Made by a program: the position numbers and the translations under genes. The notes beneath the pieces were generated by a model. The model did no database searches, was not told the origin of the DNA, and was given only the letters and a program-made list of their open reading frames with translations. Below are positions 21,761-32,022 of a DNA stretch of 64,000 bases, one piece after another. Numbering within the stretch: the stretch's first letter is position 1; each line of letters starts with the position of its first letter. Source of the stretch: a virus (lineage: Duplodnaviria > Caudoviricetes); IMG/VR virus record IMGVR_UViG_3300030330_004210, positions 32,001 through 96,000 of that record; one strand, 5' to 3'.

Positions 21761-23887
21761 CTACTTGATTAGTTTCTCAACAAGTTTATTAAACTTATCC
21801 TCGCTAGCATTGGAGCGAATCTCCTGAATAGCGTCCGAGTATGTCTCGGTTACACCCCCAACTACTCTAGGCGGTCTCTGTGACGCTCGACCTCTCTGTC
21901 GCTGGCGAGCTTTCTTGCCAAGGCTGGTTCTACTTCCAGAAGCGCCCTGAGTGGTTCTCTTTTTACTTTTGCTCGCCTTCTTATCGGGGCTTCCCTTTGC
22001 TGCTTCGCCAACAACAACATTATATTTTCGAAGCATCTCGATAGCCTCTTTGATGCTCAAGCCTCTCATGCCAGTGCCACCGCCGCCCTTACGAGCAATG
22101 GCTACAAATGCCTGCTCTGGGGTAAGAGGTTTATTTCCATTAGCCTTAACTGCTGCAATTGCCTTGCGTAAAACACGAGAAACAAAGTGATTAAACTTGG
22201 CTCCTCTCGCCATAGCATCCAGATCATTCTGAATCGAGCGATCAAAAACATAATAAAACACTGGCTTAGTTCTTGCCCCGCTCTTCAGCCTTCTACGACG
22301 ACCAGCGGTCCTAATAGCAGACCTCAAGTCTTTCACACGCTTGCCTCTGCCAAACTCTCTTTCAAAACTGTCGGTGTCGTCAAGATCGTTATCTTGCTCA
22401 AACAAAGCCGTGAACGCTTCGCTTTCTTGAAGATCGCGACCCATCACGGCGCTCTTCTCAAGAGCCTTGAGAGCATCCTCTGCTCTCTGCCTATTACCTT
22501 GCTTTTTAAGATAGTTAGCCTTGAGCTTGTATACCTTGACATCATCATCATCAAAACGAACCAGAACAGGAACTTCAAAATCAACAGGCGGCTCAACAGG
22601 CGGCTTCTGATTGTCATCTTCTTGGTCTGCACCTGTATCGTCCAGATAATCCAAACTTTGCAAGAGATCATTAAGAACTTGTGCTCTCGAAGATTTCAAA
22701 CCTTTCATGCGAAGCGCTTTAACGCCAACTGCTCCAGCAAGCAACGAAATGCCAAGGGGAGCCAAGTAGGGGGCAACAACTGCCCCAAACTTACCAGCAG
22801 CCGTAGTGGCTACAGCCGTCTTGGCTGCTCCGGTGGCGATTGGCTTCAGCGCTCTAATGACCACCTCTTTGCCCAGCTTTAACCCAAGCGCTCCGGGCTC
22901 GGCTCCAAACATCTCACCCAAGGTACCCGCACCCGATGAGGTTGCTGTGTTCCATGCGTCCATAAAAGCCGATGGATCACCTGAAAGTTGTGAAAGCTCG
23001 CCCGCATCTATGCCTGCCGCGCTCATTTCTTTAAACATTATTTGCGGGTCAACATCGGGGGCAAAGTGACTTGCGTCTCCATGCATGATGCGACCTAGCA
23101 TCTGTGTAATACCCTCTCCGGGTTCGGGCGACAGTTTTCCAACAACTTCTGTTTGCATGTCGTCAATTGGGAGATCACCTTGAATAACTCTAGTTGTAAT
23201 CTTCTTAAACCACTCTGACTCCACCAAGAACTTGCCGAGAATTGTAGCGGCTCCAATAGCAGCAAGTATGGCTGGCAACTTATTGGACTTGAGCCCCTTG
23301 ATAACTGCCGACTTTTTATCAGAAGCCATAGGACCCTCTTCCTTTTCGTCCTGCTGCTCTCTGATTATTGCCTCAAAGATTAAATCGTCCTGATCTCTGT
23401 CCACGTCTTCAGAGAAATGCTTATATACATCGGCTAACTCATAATCAAGAAACTTCTTAACAATCAACCGAAGCTGCTCAATTAACTCATTGGCAACAAC
23501 AGCGCTCATTTGCTTGCTCTCAACAGCTTTTTTTAAGGACTCGTAGAAAGCGCCGATCTCCATTGTCTGCTCAAGAAACTCATATTTATCCTCTTGGTTT
23601 GGATACCCAGCCTTCTTAAAATCTCCATTGAGCCTGTCGATCAGTGTTTTAGATTCTTTGGATGCTACCTTTTGCAGCTTCTGCATCGCCTGAACATACT
23701 GCTGCTCAGCGCCTTCTGCTCTCTTTTTGCGACCTCGAATCTTGCCGCCCTTTTCCCAAGTTCCAAGTGTCTTGGCAGCAAAATTCTTCATCTTGCTCCA
23801 GATGCCTTCTTGCAGCATTTGTTCACTAAGAATTGCTCTGGCTTCTTCCTCGACTATCTTCTTTAAGTTATCTTTGTTAGCTGACAT
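21761..23887 (-). CDS. Putative internal head / ejection protein with hydrophobic segments
   Basis: Likely start MSANKD at 23887 after GGGAG; clusters of [LIF]xE motifs, two hydrophobic stretches, very basic C-terminal third. Confidence 0.55.
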   Translation of the reverse strand: MSANKDNLKKIVEEEARAILSEQMLQEGIWSKMKNFAAKTLGTWEKGGKIRGRKKRAEGAEQQYVQAMQKLQKVASKESKTLIDRLNGDFKKAGYPNQEDKYEFLEQTMEIGAFYESLKKAVESKQMSAVVANELIEQLRLIVKKFLDYELADVYKHFSEDVDRDQDDLIFEAIIREQQDEKEEGPMASDKKSAVIKGLKSNKLPAILAAIGAATILGKFLVESEWFKKITTRVIQGDLPIDDMQTEVVGKLSPEPGEGITQMLGRIMHGDASHFAPDVDPQIMFKEMSAAGIDAGELSQLSGDPSAFMDAWNTATSSGAGTLGEMFGAEPGALGLKLGKEVVIRALKPIATGAAKTAVATTAAGKFGAVVAPYLAPLGISLLAGAVGVKALRMKGLKSSRAQVLNDLLQSLDYLDDTGADQEDDNQKPPVEPPVDFEVPVLVRFDDDDVKVYKLKANYLKKQGNRQRAEDALKALEKSAVMGRDLQESEAFTALFEQDNDLDDTDSFEREFGRGKRVKDLRSAIRTAGRRRRLKSGARTKPVFYYVFDRSIQNDLDAMARGAKFNHFVSRVLRKAIAAVKANGNKPLTPEQAFVAIARKGGGGTGMRGLSIKEAIEMLRKYNVVVGEAAKGSPDKKASKSKKRTTQGASGSRTSLGKKARQRQRGRASQRPPRVVGGVTETYSDAIQEIRSNASEDKFNKLVEKLIK

Positions 23888-23922
23888 ATATAAGTCTCCC
23901 AAGCCAGTGTGTTGGCTCCTAT

Positions 23923-24528
23923 TTAAAAATCGCCTATGATATCGTTTAGCTTTCTGTTAATACGATCTGCTTTTGTAAATACATTTGGCTGCTTCTTTGA
24001 CTCTTGCAGAGACATAAAAGCATTTGGTGTTGAAGGCTCCGACACAAAGTCAAAGCATATAAGTTGCAGGTCCTCTTGAACAACAGCATGCCCCCTTGAT
24101 TCATCAAGCGACCCAAGAGCCCTTGAAGAAATACCAAGCTTGCAACCGTCTTTAACGAGTGACTGTAGAATCTTTCCAGATGGCGTGTTAAGCACCTTTA
24201 CCTTGCCCATGACGGCTGGACCATCCCACCAAACGTCAGTAACCATGTGAGAAGCATTCTTAAGATTAATCACCGAATCATCTGGGTGGTCTAGCTCTCC
24301 CAGTGCTCGGTTTTCTCTAACAAGCTTTTCGTAGTTTTTCATCTCTCTTTCGAGGATCTTTTTTGGGTAGACGCGACCATTACCATTCTGGACCTCTGCC
24401 TCTTGCAGTTTTCCAGAAAGTATCATGCCGCCATTTGCCACATACCTCTTCTCATCTTCTGTTAAGAGGTCTTGACAAACGCCGCCTTCACATAGTTCAT
24501 AGTATTCTCGTAAAAGTTGTTTAGCCAT
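23923..24528 (-). CDS. gp21: Prohead core protease (gp21-like)
   Basis: NGNGRVYP, ALGELDHP, ASHMV, TPSGKI, LGISSRALGS, DFVSEPSTPNA. Confidence 0.95.
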   Translation of the reverse strand: MAKQLLREYYELCEGGVCQDLLTEDEKRYVANGGMILSGKLQEAEVQNGNGRVYPKKILEREMKNYEKLVRENRALGELDHPDDSVINLKNASHMVTDVWWDGPAVMGKVKVLNTPSGKILQSLVKDGCKLGISSRALGSLDESRGHAVVQEDLQLICFDFVSEPSTPNAFMSLQESKKQPNVFTKADRINRKLNDIIGDF

Positions 24529-24545
24529 ATTTAGTTCCTATAGAG

Positions 24546-24562
24546 CGGGCGCTACCCGCCCG
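24546..24562 (-). other. GC-rich stem-loop between the Cys-Cys peptide and the protease gene
   Basis: CGGGCG-GGTAG-CGCCCG, a perfect 6-bp stem with no U tract. Confidence 0.65.
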
Positions 24563-24564
24563 AG

Positions 24565-24639
24565 CTATGCTCCCTTGCAACAACGCGCAACAGGGCGAAG
24601 GTACCAGCTTCTCTTAGAGATAATTTTAGTGCGTGTCAT
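24565..24639 (-). CDS. 24-aa basic peptide MTRTKIISKRSWYLRPVARCCKGA (not in ORF track)
   Basis: GGAGG SD 7 nt before the ATG; overlaps the stop of the upstream gene and fills the intergenic gap. Confidence 0.6.
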   Translation of the reverse strand: MTRTKIISKRSWYLRPVARCCKGA

Positions 24640-24952
24640 TTTGTGCCTCCAGTTTTTGAATTTTAATGCCGCAATCACCAAACAACATGTTTAAGATGTA
24701 TGATGTTCCCGAACTCAAGCACCCCAAAATAAAATAATTTACAAGGGTGTGTTCAAAAGTAAATAGTTCCGTGCAATCGTTTATCCCACACAAAAACGCA
24801 CCAACCCAAAAGCCCATGCACATTGGACAATTGAATAGTTCGCCAAAGCCACCAAGCCACTCTTTTGTGGGTCTAATCTTATTAAAGATGGAGCCATAAA
24901 CAATAAGCTGCGTCATACCATACGCAGCCAAGATAAAATACAATAATTCCAT
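24626..24952 (-). CDS. Small membrane protein with CxxC (DUF1360-like)
   Basis: Three hydrophobic segments; GELFNCPMCMGFWVG matches the DUF1360-type G.L..CP.C...W pattern. Confidence 0.7.
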   Translation of the reverse strand: MELLYFILAAYGMTQLIVYGSIFNKIRPTKEWLGGFGELFNCPMCMGFWVGAFLCGINDCTELFTFEHTLVNYFILGCLSSGTSYILNMLFGDCGIKIQKLEAQNDTH

Positions 24953-24962
24953 GATTGCCTCT

Positions 24963-25520
24963 CTATAACATATAACTTAAGAAGTATGGACTAACTCTGC
25001 CATAACCGGGTCGGATACCGCCCTTCTCTGCGGCTTGAGGGACCTCTCCAAGCTCTGTTGAGTCAGCGGAGCTTGGATCTAAGAACTCGTCCTCTTCCAT
25101 CTTGTTGTATTTCTCTATGTACTCGAAGTAGGGTCTTTCATCATCTATAAAGTTAGAAACATTTAGAACAACCAAGGGCAGAAAATTATCTTGCTCTGCC
25201 CCAACAAGAAGCGCCTCCATTGACCCATAACTATTGCCGCCACGAATTGAATCCGGGTCTATGATTCCCTTCTTTCTAAGGTACTTAAAAAGTCGGTCCT
25301 GCGTGTCATATACCAAGTCGTTCTGGATTTCTTTAGGGAAAGCGACAATCTTTTTCTTTTGTGGCATAATCACCACATCAACATCATTGTGGTCAGAAAT
25401 TATTAAATTTCCATCCATCGTTTTCCTTATGTCTAACGACATAGTTATTGGTGGTGCTTTTGGCTCTTCGCTAGCCCGTGGAGCATCCTCTGCTTTACCA
25501 ATTTTAATGTTGATAGCCAT
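24963..25520 (-). CDS. Hypothetical protein (185 aa), head module
   Basis: Full ORF coupled by TAATG to the upstream gene. Confidence 0.7.
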   Translation of the reverse strand: MAINIKIGKAEDAPRASEEPKAPPITMSLDIRKTMDGNLIISDHNDVDVVIMPQKKKIVAFPKEIQNDLVYDTQDRLFKYLRKKGIIDPDSIRGGNSYGSMEALLVGAEQDNFLPLVVLNVSNFIDDERPYFEYIEKYNKMEEDEFLDPSSADSTELGEVPQAAEKGGIRPGYGRVSPYFLSYML

Positions 25521-26338
25521 TAACTATTTAACTCCAAAACCAAGTCTTGAATCTTTAGAAGGCTCTGAATCATGTTGGTATCGATCTCTTTCTTGGAGTA
25601 TGCTCTTAGCTCACTCAAGACCCTTTCAGTATTTCGCTTCATTGTGACGTCTTCTGAGATTTCACGAGTGCTAAGGCTATTTTCTACTTCCTCTTTTAGC
25701 CTTCCTATCTCTTCATTTAGATAAATCTTAAGATCTAATCCGTTATCTGAAAACGATGAGATATACTTGGATAACAACGTTTTTTGCTGCTCCGAAAGAG
25801 TGCCAGAATACTTTTCGTTAAACTTGGAGACAAATGTTTTATAAGTGAGGCTATCAATTGGTTTCATTTTGCTCTCTTCTTTAGCCTCTGGCTCGGAACT
25901 TAAGTAGTCAACGATCTTGCCTTCAAGGAGCACCCTCTCCTTAACAGGCGTATCAGAATTAAAAAGCTGTGCTAACGTTGCCAAATCTTTATAGTTTGGA
26001 ACGAAGTTTGAAAAGACTGCCTTTTTGTATTCCTGATTCATATCGCGAATAAGATCCGACTGCTCTTTGAAGACATCACCATCCAATATATACTTTCTTT
26101 GTGCCTTTACTTCAAAAATGAGTTTTTCGGCTATGATCTTGTCTAAGCTCCTTGTCTCAAGTATCGCCTTGTAAAGCTGCAACTCCTCATACAGAGCGGA
26201 GCCCTTTTTAAAGTGCTTGGCAATAATCTTTCTTGTTCTGGCTTGCGTCTTAAGATCGCCACGAACAACTGCCTTTGTCATTTCAGCAATTAAAGCCTCA
26301 AACAAAAAAGCGGTATTTCTTTTCTTATTGTGCCTCAT
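25520..26338 (-). CDS. Hypothetical protein (272 aa), portal-adjacent
   Basis: Helical protein beginning MRHNKKRNTAFLFEAL; overlaps the portal stop. Confidence 0.7.
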   Translation of the reverse strand: MRHNKKRNTAFLFEALIAEMTKAVVRGDLKTQARTRKIIAKHFKKGSALYEELQLYKAILETRSLDKIIAEKLIFEVKAQRKYILDGDVFKEQSDLIRDMNQEYKKAVFSNFVPNYKDLATLAQLFNSDTPVKERVLLEGKIVDYLSSEPEAKEESKMKPIDSLTYKTFVSKFNEKYSGTLSEQQKTLLSKYISSFSDNGLDLKIYLNEEIGRLKEEVENSLSTREISEDVTMKRNTERVLSELRAYSKKEIDTNMIQSLLKIQDLVLELNS

Positions 26339-28319
26339 CTTTTGTTTCCTTTGTCCCTAATCCCTCAATCAACTTTTCAATCTCATAGTTTGTTTGAAAT
26401 ATCATATGCTCATCAAGGATTTGCCTCTTTTCATAATTAGAGCGCTGGTCCTCCATTTGCATATTTCTTAGCTGATTCATACCAGTAGAACCAAAGCCTC
26501 CGGGGAACATTGTTCTGGTACTAGTTTCTTTTGAGATGGTGCTTCTCATGTTTCTTGTTCGTGGACCAGCATCTTTTCGCTTGTCGCGCTTAGCAGGCGT
26601 GTATCTCTTGCCCTTGGCACCGGGCGTTATATACGAGCCGTCCTCTTCAATGTCTCTCTTCGCTGGGGGCTCTGCCAAAAGAACACTACCCTCGTCACCA
26701 CCGGCTGGAGCAGTATCTGCTGCTGGTGCCGGGGTGTCACCACCGCCTCCAAGATCTGCACCACCTTCATCGCCCCCACCAAGATCGCCGAGATCTCCTA
26801 AGCCACCGCCTGCATCATCGCCGCCTGCTGGGGTGGCGGTTGCGGAAAGGCTGGCTTCAGCCTCACCGGCTGCTTCTGCGGCTGCATTGATTTGAGCATC
26901 ATACTTCTTATCATAGAAAAGTTCTCTTTGGTTTCTAACAAACTCTTCCTCTGACATGTTGAACAAGTGCTCGCATACCCAACGACGACTAAAATAGCCT
27001 TCTGTTGCATTTGCTGCAATATCAAATTTTGTCTTCCAATGTTCAAGCTCCTGAAGCTCTGCGAGCTTAGACGGGTTGTTTAGGTAAAGACTAAAGTTTA
27101 GGAGATCGTCTCCACGAAAACCAAGAGTGTATAAGTGGATAATGCCAATCTTTTCAAGCTCTGAAATGACGGCTCTTTGTAATCTCTGGATTGTTCTGGC
27201 AAATCTAATATCTTTTTGTGCGAGTGTTGTTTTGTCTTCCGTTTTTTCGTCACCCTGCGTAAGGTAAGAGGCGGGTATCTTCAGGGCAGAAAACAACTTA
27301 TCTCTTAAATACTTAACGTCATCAATATCTCCTGTGTTCTGACCACCCGCCAAGCTTTCCACCTTTGACGAAGTGTCGCCGCGAACAGGAATAAAGTAAT
27401 CTTCTTCAACGCTCATGGGGTTATACCGAAGATCAACACGACCCGTATCAGGGCTCACCAACTGATTTCTCTTCATAGATGTCATAACTTTCTGCATGTA
27501 TTGTTCGACATCGGTTGGCGGGATATTACCAACATCAACGTAGAAGACTCTTCTTTCTGGAGCGCGGACGACCCGGTAAGCCATCATGGCGTCTTCCATC
27601 AAAATAAGTTGACGCCAGATACGACGAGCCGCTTCAAGGACTGAAGTTCCGTAAGGAGTATACTTATCGTTGCCTAAAATTCTAAAGTGACCAACTTGCC
27701 AATTCTCAAACGTCATAGCGGCTGAGTTCCACTGGAACTGCACATAGTTTGGATTGGTTTTATCTTCGCCCTCTAGCCTTTCAACCTCGGCAGATGGCAA
27801 CCCAATGACTGTCTTGATGCCTATCTTTTCGTCTATATCAAGGTATAAAAAGAAGTCACCATACTTGCACATTGTACGACACCAGCCAAAAAGGTTGTAC
27901 TCAATGTTTAGAATGTTCTGGTATAGAGTCGATAACACAGCCTTTATTTCGGCATTGGGACACTTAATTGTAAGCATCGGCTGAAGAGATGAATGCGTGG
28001 TCATCTCATCAGCATAGATATCTAGCGCAGAAGCGATCTCTGGCGTGTACTCCATCTGATCAAAGTCGGTGTACCTTTCTGACCTTCTCTGGTTTGCCAT
28101 TGCCGAACTGTTGATCTGGGCAAATGGATTATATCCCGACCTTTTGAACTGTTGACCAGAAGCGCTCTTAAATTTAGTAGAAAAATAATCTAACTGGGAC
28201 CGCTTATAATCTCTCGTCATCTGCGAGCGATAGTTTGTAATTGGTCCAGAGAAGAGGCGAGTCAATCTCCTAAAAAGTGTTGACTCTGCGTTTCTTGGAT
28301 TTCTTGTCTGGTCAGCCAT
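26325..28319 (-). CDS. gp20: Portal protein (gp20-like)
   Basis: LMEDAMMAYRVVRAPERRVFYVDVGNIP, EDYFIP, DIDDVKY, ALKIP. Confidence 0.95.
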   Translation of the reverse strand: MADQTRNPRNAESTLFRRLTRLFSGPITNYRSQMTRDYKRSQLDYFSTKFKSASGQQFKRSGYNPFAQINSSAMANQRRSERYTDFDQMEYTPEIASALDIYADEMTTHSSLQPMLTIKCPNAEIKAVLSTLYQNILNIEYNLFGWCRTMCKYGDFFLYLDIDEKIGIKTVIGLPSAEVERLEGEDKTNPNYVQFQWNSAAMTFENWQVGHFRILGNDKYTPYGTSVLEAARRIWRQLILMEDAMMAYRVVRAPERRVFYVDVGNIPPTDVEQYMQKVMTSMKRNQLVSPDTGRVDLRYNPMSVEEDYFIPVRGDTSSKVESLAGGQNTGDIDDVKYLRDKLFSALKIPASYLTQGDEKTEDKTTLAQKDIRFARTIQRLQRAVISELEKIGIIHLYTLGFRGDDLLNFSLYLNNPSKLAELQELEHWKTKFDIAANATEGYFSRRWVCEHLFNMSEEEFVRNQRELFYDKKYDAQINAAAEAAGEAEASLSATATPAGGDDAGGGLGDLGDLGGGDEGGADLGGGGDTPAPAADTAPAGGDEGSVLLAEPPAKRDIEEDGSYITPGAKGKRYTPAKRDKRKDAGPRTRNMRSTISKETSTRTMFPGGFGSTGMNQLRNMQMEDQRSNYEKRQILDEHMIFQTNYEIEKLIEGLGTKETKDEAQ

Positions 28320-28322
28320 TTA

Positions 28323-29906
28323 TCACCCCTTTAAAAGCCATGAATATTGTTGATACTCACTCATCTGTTTTGCCGCCTTTTGTTCGTAATCCCGATCATA
28401 TCCTTTTTGTCCGGGTATTTGTGTGCTCATCTTGGTTGTGGACATTATCATGGAATCTAAAAAAGCCTTTTGATAGTTCATTTTTCTCTGGTTAATTGTT
28501 AGGGCAGTGTCCCTTACCCAACAGCCTATTGCCAAAGACATAACTAGGTCGTCGTGGTATGTTCTCATTGCTTGTGGTTTGCCGTTGTTCCATATAAAAG
28601 TTGTAAGTTCGTTATGTAGGCGACTAGAATACACATTAATTAGTTTATTTCTGATGAATTCCTCCAACTTTGCAACAATTAAAGGTCGCGTTTTAGATGA
28701 GGTGGTAAACCCAGCAATAACATTCTTCATGCCATCAGCGACACCAGACTCAACATAATCGTGAGTGCCCTTCACAGAATAATACAAATTTGGATATTGC
28801 AAATCTTCAAGCTTTTCACATACAGAAATACCAATGCCTACATTTTCTACAACCATAAGTGCGCCTCCGTATTCGCACCCCACTTGGTTGAGTATATTAG
28901 CATACATATCCAAGCTTGGCTTTCCTTGGTATTCAGCAACAATTTCCATTGTCTCTAGTTTAAATGTCTGGAAAACAGAGAAGTCTGCTCCGTCACCGCG
29001 AGCCACATCAGCAACAACCATATATGTGTTGTCTTCTCGATACTCTTCCCATATCCAATAATTTCTGTCAAAGCCGGTTCTGTGTTTTGGCTCTCGTATA
29101 TTACTTCTTATTAACTCTAGATCGTCAGAGTGAATTACTGTTTCTCCAGACGTATTAAAGTTACACTCTAGCTCTTGAGCAATTTGCCGACGAGACATGT
29201 TTTTGGTCTCTTTCTCAAACCATGCCTGATCTCTCTCTGGGTGGACATCCCACGGCAAATTAATTGGCTTAAAGTCGTTATCTTCCAGTTCTGCTTCAGT
29301 GTAAGTTTTGTGAAACCAGTTACCTACACCATTAGGGGTAGATAAGGCAATACAGCGACCACCCGTAGAAAGCGTAGGATACAAGCCTGTCCACAGTTCT
29401 TCAAGACCCTCAACGTGTGCTGCCTCATCAATAACAAGAAGCGACAAAGCCTCTGAACGACCTGCGTCGCCAGAGGTAGATGTTGCCTTTATTTGTGACC
29501 CGTTAGACAATTCAAAGCTTGTCCTATTGTCTACAGATATCTCTGTGATGCGAATCCAAGGTGGCAAGTTTCTCATGATTGCCTTAACCTTTTTGACCAA
29601 GTTTGCTGCCGTGCTGAACTTAGTAGCCATTACAAGGATGTTCTTGTCCTTGTGAAATAGCATCATCCAAACAACATAAGCCGCAACAATTGTTGAAATA
29701 CCTAGCTGCCTAGCTTTTAGTATAACTGTGAAACGATGATCGTTGAAATCTTTTAATAAATCATCCTGATAATCAAAAGTCTTAAAGGGAATCGAGCCCT
29801 TAAGTGGGTGAGATATCTTGCAATAATTATTAATGAAGTAGCTCGGGTCTTTGCCCGACTTAAATATCTCTTTGACTATCTCTTTCTTTGATAACTCATG
29901 AACCAT
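28323..29906 (-). CDS. terL: Terminase large subunit (gp17-like)
   Basis: LKARQLGIST (Walker A region), LLVIDEAAH (Walker B), STPNG, QELEC, VADVARG.G.DFS, HDDLVMS. Confidence 0.97.
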   Translation of the reverse strand: MVHELSKKEIVKEIFKSGKDPSYFINNYCKISHPLKGSIPFKTFDYQDDLLKDFNDHRFTVILKARQLGISTIVAAYVVWMMLFHKDKNILVMATKFSTAANLVKKVKAIMRNLPPWIRITEISVDNRTSFELSNGSQIKATSTSGDAGRSEALSLLVIDEAAHVEGLEELWTGLYPTLSTGGRCIALSTPNGVGNWFHKTYTEAELEDNDFKPINLPWDVHPERDQAWFEKETKNMSRRQIAQELECNFNTSGETVIHSDDLELIRSNIREPKHRTGFDRNYWIWEEYREDNTYMVVADVARGDGADFSVFQTFKLETMEIVAEYQGKPSLDMYANILNQVGCEYGGALMVVENVGIGISVCEKLEDLQYPNLYYSVKGTHDYVESGVADGMKNVIAGFTTSSKTRPLIVAKLEEFIRNKLINVYSSRLHNELTTFIWNNGKPQAMRTYHDDLVMSLAIGCWVRDTALTINQRKMNYQKAFLDSMIMSTTKMSTQIPGQKGYDRDYEQKAAKQMSEYQQYSWLLKG

Positions 29907-32000: not shown

Positions 32001-32022
32001 GTTCGCTCCTTACATAATTAGT

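Follow-up and report, generated by a model that had tools for sequence, protein, structure and literature searches.

The DNA considered here is a stretch of 64,000 nucleotides, called the window below, that covers positions 32,001 to 96,000 of IMG/VR virus record IMGVR_UViG_3300030330_004210, a 111-kb record of a tailed phage (Caudoviricetes) with an estimated completeness of 61%. The genes of the window are all on the minus strand, and those around the element in question form a T4-type head module. Between the gene for a DUF1360-like membrane protein of 108 amino acids (24626-24952, minus strand) and the gene for a Peptidase_S77 (gp21-type) prohead serine protease of 201 amino acids (23923-24528, minus strand) lies an open reading frame (ORF) of 24 codons plus a TAG stop (24565-24639, minus strand), which is followed on the same strand by an RNA hairpin (24543-24561, counting a core and two optional outer pairs). 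The ORF begins with an ATG at 24637-24639, ends with the TAG at 24565-24567 and overlaps the 3' end of the membrane-protein gene by 14 nt in a different frame. A Shine-Dalgarno (SD) sequence, GGAGG, can be read at 24646-24650 on the minus strand, 6 nt before the ATG. The encoded micropeptide ends in RPVARCCKGA, and its two adjacent Cys codons are at 24577-24582. The original prediction for this region described a membrane protein with a CPMC motif and an overlapping, SD-led peptide of 24 amino acids with this ending, all of which are present on the minus strand, together with a stem-loop that was likened to a bacterial selenocysteine insertion sequence (SECIS). Comparison with related loci indicates that the 24-codon ORF is a real, never-annotated gene translated from its own SD sequence and ATG, and that the hairpin is a covarying RNA structure of the sense strand attached to the 3' end of this gene.

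The micropeptide gene and its flanking genes

At least 599 stretches in IMG/VR are related to the membrane protein, and likewise at least 599 to the protease. Genes for both proteins are present in 152 of the 160 loci that were fetched, and the unique loci, including the window, number 125. A DNA-pattern search for the peptide motif added further loci and gave 216 distinct nucleotide versions. The loci come from related phages, and counts of them therefore do not equal independent events. They belong to uncultured T4-like myoviruses of marine origin, which form a large clade. The significance of both the peptide and the hairpin derives entirely from this comparison with relatives.

Each of the 125 unique loci has a single occurrence of the motif [PEG]-V-x-x-C-[CK]-x(1,2)-G-x, always between the membrane-protein and protease genes. 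The peptide core reads W-x-[LI]-[QR]-P-V-[RA]-x-C-C-[KSG]-G-[SA], with C-K-[KN]-G-C as a variant. Among the 216 versions, entropy for W, P, V, C and G in this 13-codon core is approximately 0 to 0.3 bits at the first two codon positions and about 1.8 bits at the third. Third-codon positions are saturated across these versions, and all four codons are in use for Val (98/54/46/18), Gly (76/74/34/32) and Pro. The codon-position entropy and the use of all codons point to purifying selection on the translated peptide at saturated synonymous divergence. The original prediction named conservation as the check on the peptide, and the peptide is conserved, with the codon periodicity of a coding sequence. 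Every version has an in-frame start (ATG in 213 and GTG in three), and an SD-like motif precedes the start in 209 of the 216. From the start codon to the G-S end, nearly all versions span 16-26 amino acids, most often 21-22, and the peptide of the window has 24. The peptide has a mean net charge of +4.3, lacks acidic residues in 75% of versions and possesses exactly two Cys residues in 214 of 216. Other genes can be inserted between the peptide gene and the membrane-protein gene, between the peptide gene and the protease gene, or at both places, and the peptide gene always retains its own SD sequence and ATG. The core also displays a coupled change among the 216 versions: Gln occurs in L-Q-P-V-R, while L-R-P-V-A, the form in the window, moves the Arg three residues upstream. 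This change retains the charge, as though both positions face one partner.

Only one homologue of the micropeptide has been called among 5.8 billion proteins, which indicates that gene callers miss it. No longer or fused homologue of 78-2000 amino acids carrying the motif was found among the same 5.8 billion proteins. The micropeptide has no match in Pfam, in PHROGs or among 50,697 GenBank phages, and its motif was not found in the literature; neither public annotation nor the literature that was searched describes the family. The GenBank phages also contain no DNA or membrane-protein match that would mark a cultured relative. The nearest proteases from cultured phages are 43-45% identical, and the regions upstream of their genes are without all three Cys features described here. 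Contigs homologous to the locus have been binned with marine metagenome-assembled genomes (MAGs) of many unrelated taxa. The bins of ten such contigs include Pelagibacter TMED166, Flavobacteriaceae, Legionellales, Acidiferrobacteraceae and even Altiarchaeales. This spread probably reflects binning artefacts and is uninformative on the host. One of these ten contigs (L477) retains CPMC together with the peptide and the hairpin, although its membrane protein is just 36% identical.

The membrane protein matches the Pfam DUF1360 model (PF07098) with a score of 26.7 bits, which passes the gathering cut-off of 21, in an alignment that covers 25 residues only (residues 32-56 against model positions 49-73 of 102) around the CPMC motif. 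It weakly matches phrog_781, and its neighbours in a protein atlas are viral DUF1360 clusters. CPMC is encoded by codons 42-45 (24818-24829) and is invariant in all 100 distinct homologues. A confident AlphaFold 2 (AF2) model (predicted local distance difference test score, pLDDT, 85.8) has three helices, at residues 2-24, 43-59 and 70-90, in line with three predicted transmembrane segments. The mean number of Lys and Arg residues is 3.95 in predicted loop 1 versus 0.15 in loop 2, an excess which, based on the positive-inside rule, would place CPMC at the cytoplasmic end of the second transmembrane helix. No structural analogue of the protein was found in the Protein Data Bank (PDB).

The protease is recognized by Pfam (Peptidase_S77, E = 1.3e-32) and by the PHROG head maturation protease family (E = 7e-54), and it matches the T4 gp21 structure (PDB 5JBL) with E = 2.4e-21, where HMMER aligns residues 23-179 only. 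Its N-terminus is LLRE-YYEL-C13-EGGV-C18-QDLLTE, and the codons for the two Cys residues are at 24490-24492 and 24475-24477 on the minus strand. This C-x4-C motif is present in all 96 distinct protease N-termini from peptide-bearing loci and is still there when protease identity falls to 55%; neither C13 nor C18 varies in an alignment of 46 relatives. The motif is flanked by LRE and LTE, both of which fit the [LI]xE cleavage pattern of T4 gp21, and in an AF2 model residues 4-12 of the protease form a strand with the Cys loop directly after it. Three outgroups, which are the nearest cultured relatives, are Flavobacterium phage immuto, S-RIM2 and Microcystis phage Mel-JY01, the last with 12 relatives in IMG/VR. 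All of them are without C-x4-C, and the micropeptide and the CPMC protein are missing along with it. As judged from these alignments, the N-terminal C-x4-C is specific to the peptide-bearing protease clade, and it is newly noticed here. All 46 aligned relatives also share a further invariant Cys in the core of the protease, C158 (24055-24057, minus strand), which is part of the segment LICFDFVSEPS.

The hairpin and the surrounding head genes

The original prediction drew a perfect stem-loop, CGGGCG-GGTAG-CGCCCG, with the protease 17 nt downstream. The stem-loop is present at 24546-24562, 17 nt ahead of the protease ATG (24526-24528), but the register that was drawn differs by 3 nt from the one conserved in relatives, in which GCGGG (24555-24559) pairs with CCCGC (24545-24549) across the loop UAGCG (24550-24554). 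The hairpin in the window starts 3 nt past the stop codon of the peptide, and its two outer pairs are optional. Taken alone, the hairpin of the window is not beyond chance, as one match is found versus 0.36 expected and at least one match occurs in 30 of 100 shuffles. Local folding of the 161-nt region is no better than that of shuffled sequences (z = 0.64), and only the single hairpin is stable there, with no alternative fold.

In relatives, the distance from the first Cys codon to the stem is constant in a gap-free alignment of 83 sequences. The loops have 5 nt, are mostly UAGCG, UUGCG or UAACG, and conserve the U and G at their ends. The five core pairs are 96-100% paired, and three of them have changes on both sides (GC to AU, CG or UA); the covariation score is reached by none of 500 shuffles, and pairing drops to only 34-58% when the 3' partner is slid as a control. 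These compensatory changes answer the original call for covariation in the stem. Additional stem variants among the 216 versions include GCCGG/CCGGC, GCCGC/GCGGC and GGGGG/CCCCC. There are 17 G-U pairs versus two A-C pairs, and the excess of G-U over A-C indicates that the structure is read in the sense-strand RNA.

The hairpin is found at its fixed offset in 139 of the 216 versions (64%) and is missing from the other 77 (36%). In versions lacking the hairpin, CT typically separates the stop codon from the ATG that starts the next gene (TAGCTATG or TGACTATG). The stop codon (TAG, TGA or TAA) is 3-5 nt ahead of the stem in 76 hairpin-bearing versions, and in the remaining 63 of the 139 the ORF continues through the stem (x-R-V-A-P-A...) into short, non-conserved tails. 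The stem variants alter the amino acids of this read-through radically and leave pairing intact, which argues that the stem is conserved as RNA and not as protein. In 20 loci another gene precedes the protease gene and the hairpin is still behind the peptide gene, and it therefore belongs to the 3' end of the peptide gene and not to the protease gene. The suggestion that the hairpin tunes translation of the protease is thus unsupported as it was stated.

A T-rich tail (at least five T in the next 8 nt) follows the stem in only 30 of the 139 hairpins, and 78% of them have no U-tract. The tail in the window, CTCTATAGG, does not have the features of an intrinsic (Rho-independent) terminator, and a terminator scan does not list the hairpin. 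A generic, repeated terminator is ruled out because the hairpin occurs once in 64 kb. A search of Rfam with positions 24300-24800 gave no match at E <= 10 other than a chance match to a miRNA. The protease gene has an SD-like sequence, AGGAA (24535-24539, minus strand), which is 5 nt after the conserved stem, or 3 nt after the outer pairs, and 6 nt before the ATG. An SD-like motif starts 1-6 nt past the stem in 73 of the 139 hairpin-bearing versions.

The remaining genes of the block, all on the minus strand, include those for the large terminase (28323-29906) and a gp20-type portal (26325-28319). The portal gene is followed by genes for two unassigned proteins of 272 amino acids (25520-26338) and 185 amino acids (24963-25520), neither of which has a Pfam or PHROG match at E <= 0.01. 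Hypothetical genes of roughly similar size occupy the place of these two, from the portal to the membrane protein, in cultured relatives. The protease gene is followed by the gene for an unassigned protein of 713 amino acids (21761-23902). In eight loci, genes inserted between the micropeptide gene and the protease gene start at a stop-CT-ATG junction or a near variant of it. The products of these inserted genes have similar N-termini (MKITxSQLKQII...), which recall the LKKIVEEE start of the 713-amino-acid protein in the window, and may be extra prohead-core proteins. A T4 late-promoter motif was sought near the element, and none was found inside the head block.

Candidate roles of the micropeptide and the hairpin

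We favour the reading, to which we assign a probability of roughly 60%, that the locus possesses a real two-Cys micropeptide gene with a 3' hairpin that is not a SECIS, and that the product of the gene would have its role as a protein in the cytoplasm. The thiol or membrane-anchoring module for head assembly that was originally proposed remains a plausible candidate, to which the third conserved Cys pair, on the protease, lends indirect support. T4 proheads start on the inner membrane at the gp20 portal complex, which needs gp40, and the N-terminal region of T4 gp21 blocks its own active site until self-cleavage (PMC9958956). In the phages described here, the peptide would act on the cytoplasmic side, where its Cys pair would join CPMC of the membrane protein and/or C-x4-C of the protease via a metal ion common to them (a Zn 'clasp') or via a thiol link. 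By bridging or capping CPMC and/or the Cys loop that adjoins the inhibitory strand at the N-terminus of the protease, the peptide would tether or latch the protease zymogen at a membrane-bound, T4-type prohead initiation site. Since three adjacent products with invariant Cys pairs would face the reducing cytoplasm, a shared metal site or a thiol link is preferred over disulfide chemistry. This specific metal or thiol tether is tentative, and the prerequisites of a zinc clasp, namely invariant Cys pairs on three adjacent products predicted to be cytoplasmic, are seen at the level of sequence only. A further step, in which the three Cys pairs would form an intermolecular metal or thiol latch that holds the zymogen at the membrane site and times its activation, is unlikely enough to be offered as speculation. 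The hairpin would serve as an intercistronic mRNA element, either a partial terminator or attenuator or a stabiliser of late head mRNA. A ribosome that reaches the stop codon 3-5 nt upstream of the 5-bp stem, or that reads through it, would have to melt the stem, and folding of the hairpin would thus be coupled to translation of the micropeptide gene.

Several observations weigh against this reading. The link between the Cys pairs is a conjecture from sequence, and the three Cys features may occur together owing to one ancestral event in a single clade, which makes their co-occurrence weak as independent evidence. The Cys spacing of the peptide (CC or CxxxC) does not track the type of protease motif, with no association beyond phylogeny, and genes can separate the peptide gene from either neighbour. 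The hairpin is dispensable, as it is missing in 36% of versions, and the scarcity of T-rich tails (30 of 139) makes termination doubtful in most versions, including the window. Finally, the concentration of conservation in the last 13 codons and the tight stop-CT-ATG junctions also fit a cis-acting leader peptide.

Such a leader or arrest peptide is the main rival, although we consider it improbable. The ORF would act in cis, with a ribosome at the conserved C-terminal codons (at the tandem Cys codons, or through nascent-chain arrest) deciding whether the hairpin forms, and the state of the hairpin would set transcription or translation of the downstream head genes in the manner of pyrBI, trpL or TnaC. 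Besides the variable N-terminus and length that accompany the conserved C-terminal codons, the fixed spacing from stop to stem is what a leader would have, as are the 63 of 139 hairpin-bearing versions in which the ORF reads through the stem, the 30 with a T-rich tail, and the hairpin-less versions in which the stop is 2 nt before the next ATG. Strong amino-acid selection acts on every core residue, however, and not on the Cys codons alone, and the Cys pair can be split (C-K-N-G-C). The gene downstream is not always the protease gene, and non-conserved read-through tails of 8-33 residues are tolerated. An attenuator is also expected to have mutually exclusive folds, whereas no alternative antiterminator fold is present here (z = 0.64), 78% of hairpins are without a U-tract, and 36% of versions are without a hairpin.

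A far less probable alternative is that the peptide binds its own hairpin, as lambda N binds boxB, for autoregulation or late antitermination. The peptide is basic and has a conserved Trp, the hairpin combines a stem of 5 bp with a loop of 5 nt whose end bases, U and G, are conserved, and a constant distance physically couples the two. Nevertheless, 36% of versions have the peptide without the hairpin, the loop, being UAGCG or UUGCG, does not resemble GNRA, no role would be left for the invariant Cys pair, and the single occurrence of the hairpin in the window provides no set of target sites.

Recoding, by a frameshift that joins the membrane protein to the peptide or by a frameshift, hop (as in T4 gene 60) or read-through that joins the peptide to the protease, is so improbable that it can be set aside. 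The C after the stop codon in most versions, the stable stem closely downstream of the stop and the conserved, basic nascent peptide upstream of it would all suit recoding. A frameshift fusion of the membrane protein and the peptide is nonetheless excluded by inconsistent frame offsets, since the frame of the peptide relative to the membrane-protein gene is distributed over all three offsets (87, 15 and 1 loci). A frameshift or hop from peptide to protease is excluded by the distance to the protease ATG, which varies from -8 to +48 nt along with the frame, and by the lack of codon matching, as the take-off codon equals protease codon 2 in only one of 58 loci (permutation p = 0.76). There is no conserved slippery heptamer, because third positions are saturated. 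Programmed stop read-through is excluded by the use of all three stop codons, by the frequent sense codons at this position (31% of versions) and by the non-conserved tails that follow them. The lack of any fused form of 78-2000 amino acids among the 5.8 billion proteins likewise stands against recoding.

The last alternative is the SECIS itself, which would place selenocysteine (Sec) at one of the Cys positions to form a C-terminal Cys-Sec redox tail like that of thioredoxin reductase. Tails of this kind, with vicinal Cys-Cys or Cys-Sec at the C-terminus, are known as redox centres from thioredoxin reductase and MerA. The copy in the window has no in-frame TGA, as was stated originally, and its Cys codons are TGT and TGC. 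Relatives with TGA at a Cys position had been anticipated, and IMG/VR was scanned with degenerate patterns requiring TGA at the first Cys codon (Cys1) or the second (Cys2), along with a Cys-Cys control. The control recovered at least 120 stretches, and homologues of the membrane protein or the protease were present in all 80 loci examined. The pattern with TGA at Cys1 gave ten matches, all of them one unrelated, stop-riddled repeat, and no true homologue. The pattern with TGA at Cys2 gave one true homologue in IMG/VR, locus L174 (296-450, minus strand), in which the micropeptide gene is tandemly duplicated. Copy 1 of L174 reads ...PVRRC-TGA-KGS-TAG and has no hairpin, while copy 2 is intact, reads CC and is followed by the hairpin and the protease. 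The TGA patterns, applied to 241 million metagenome records, yielded 100 stretches, and among the loci checked the true homologues were L382, which is the same contig as L174, and L361, a close relative of L174 with the same duplicate layout. Between these two related contigs, the region of copy 1 looks more alike than that of copy 2.

What speaks for Sec is that one copy in the L174/L361 lineage, SD-led and intact in all other respects, reads TGT-TGA in place of the two Cys codons. However, this copy is without the hairpin and sits beside an intact, hairpin-bearing CC copy, and the simplest reading of its sequence is a nonsense change in a redundant copy. Cys codons are present at both positions in more than 200 distinct versions, and both are kept in the 36% of versions from which the hairpin is missing. 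The stem is a perfect helix of 5-7 bp with no bulge or bulged U, and it has no Rfam SECIS match. A tRNA scan found no tRNA in the 64-kb window and no tRNA-Sec in the 111-kb record, which is an estimated 61% complete. Taken together, these findings refute the SECIS for the window, and they make Sec very unlikely for the peptide family as a whole. The case is a clean negative example against calling SECIS elements from geometry alone.

Comparison with known systems

The micropeptide gene resembles trpL, the pyrBI leader and TnaC in being a short, SD-led ORF with tandem identical codons near its end, a conserved C-terminal part and a hairpin right after the stop. It differs from them in that all core residues are conserved as amino acids and the downstream gene varies, and its hairpin differs in being dispensable, in having no alternative fold and, in most versions, in having no U-tract. 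The likeness to bacterial SECIS elements of the fdhF type is one of position, as the hairpin is a couple of dozen nt 3' of the candidate codons and inside or just after the ORF. Unlike those elements, it is associated with no UGA, bulged U or Rfam match, nor with a tRNA-Sec in the 111-kb record, and the Cys codons persist where it is lacking. The C-terminal tails of MerA (...CCAG) and thioredoxin reductase (...GCUG/SCCS) share with the micropeptide a Cys-Cys pair three residues from a flexible C-terminus. The micropeptide, in contrast, is a free peptide of 16-26 amino acids and not the end of a flavoenzyme, and its CxxxC variant and read-through tails show that exact C-terminal geometry is not required.

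Closer to the genomic setting are the small prohead-core proteins gp67 and gp68 of T4 and the unannotated small ORFs of phages. Like them, the micropeptide gene is very short; it is part of the portal-to-protease block of a T4-type head module, and gene callers miss it. The proteins gp67 and gp68 have 80 and 141 amino acids, respectively. The micropeptide is much shorter, possesses an invariant Cys pair and is unrelated in sequence to entries in Pfam, PHROGs or GenBank phages. Only 7 of the 216 peptide versions have a gp21-type [LI]xE cleavage site. Hundreds of marine T4-like phage contigs hold this near-invariant gene that is too short for gene callers, and conserved components thus hide even in a 'solved' virus assembly module of the best-studied kind. 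If true, the triad of Cys pairs would offer a testable handle on how prohead proteases are kept silent and positioned at the membrane, and the latch would amount to a control principle new to T4-type head maturation, exerted via an unannotated gene of 16-26 amino acids.

For the proposed metal site, a parallel is the zinc clasp of CD4/CD8 and Lck, in which a Cys pair of a short, cytoplasmic, membrane-proximal segment and a Cys pair of a second chain share Zn (PMC12198760). The candidates for such an arrangement here would be CC/CxxxC of the peptide, CPMC and C-x4-C, and the comparison is pure analogy. For the proposed tether, the parallel is the prohead initiator of T4 (PMC9958956). The membrane protein described here is DUF1360-like and not gp40, the Cys pairs and the micropeptide are without T4 counterparts, and a role in initiation or latching is one that we infer. 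As with the gp20-gp40 initiator of T4, however, a small membrane protein and a protease zymogen are encoded together with the portal, and the LLRE strand at the N-terminus of the protease resembles the QLLIE segment that blocks the active site of T4 gp21 (PMC9958956).

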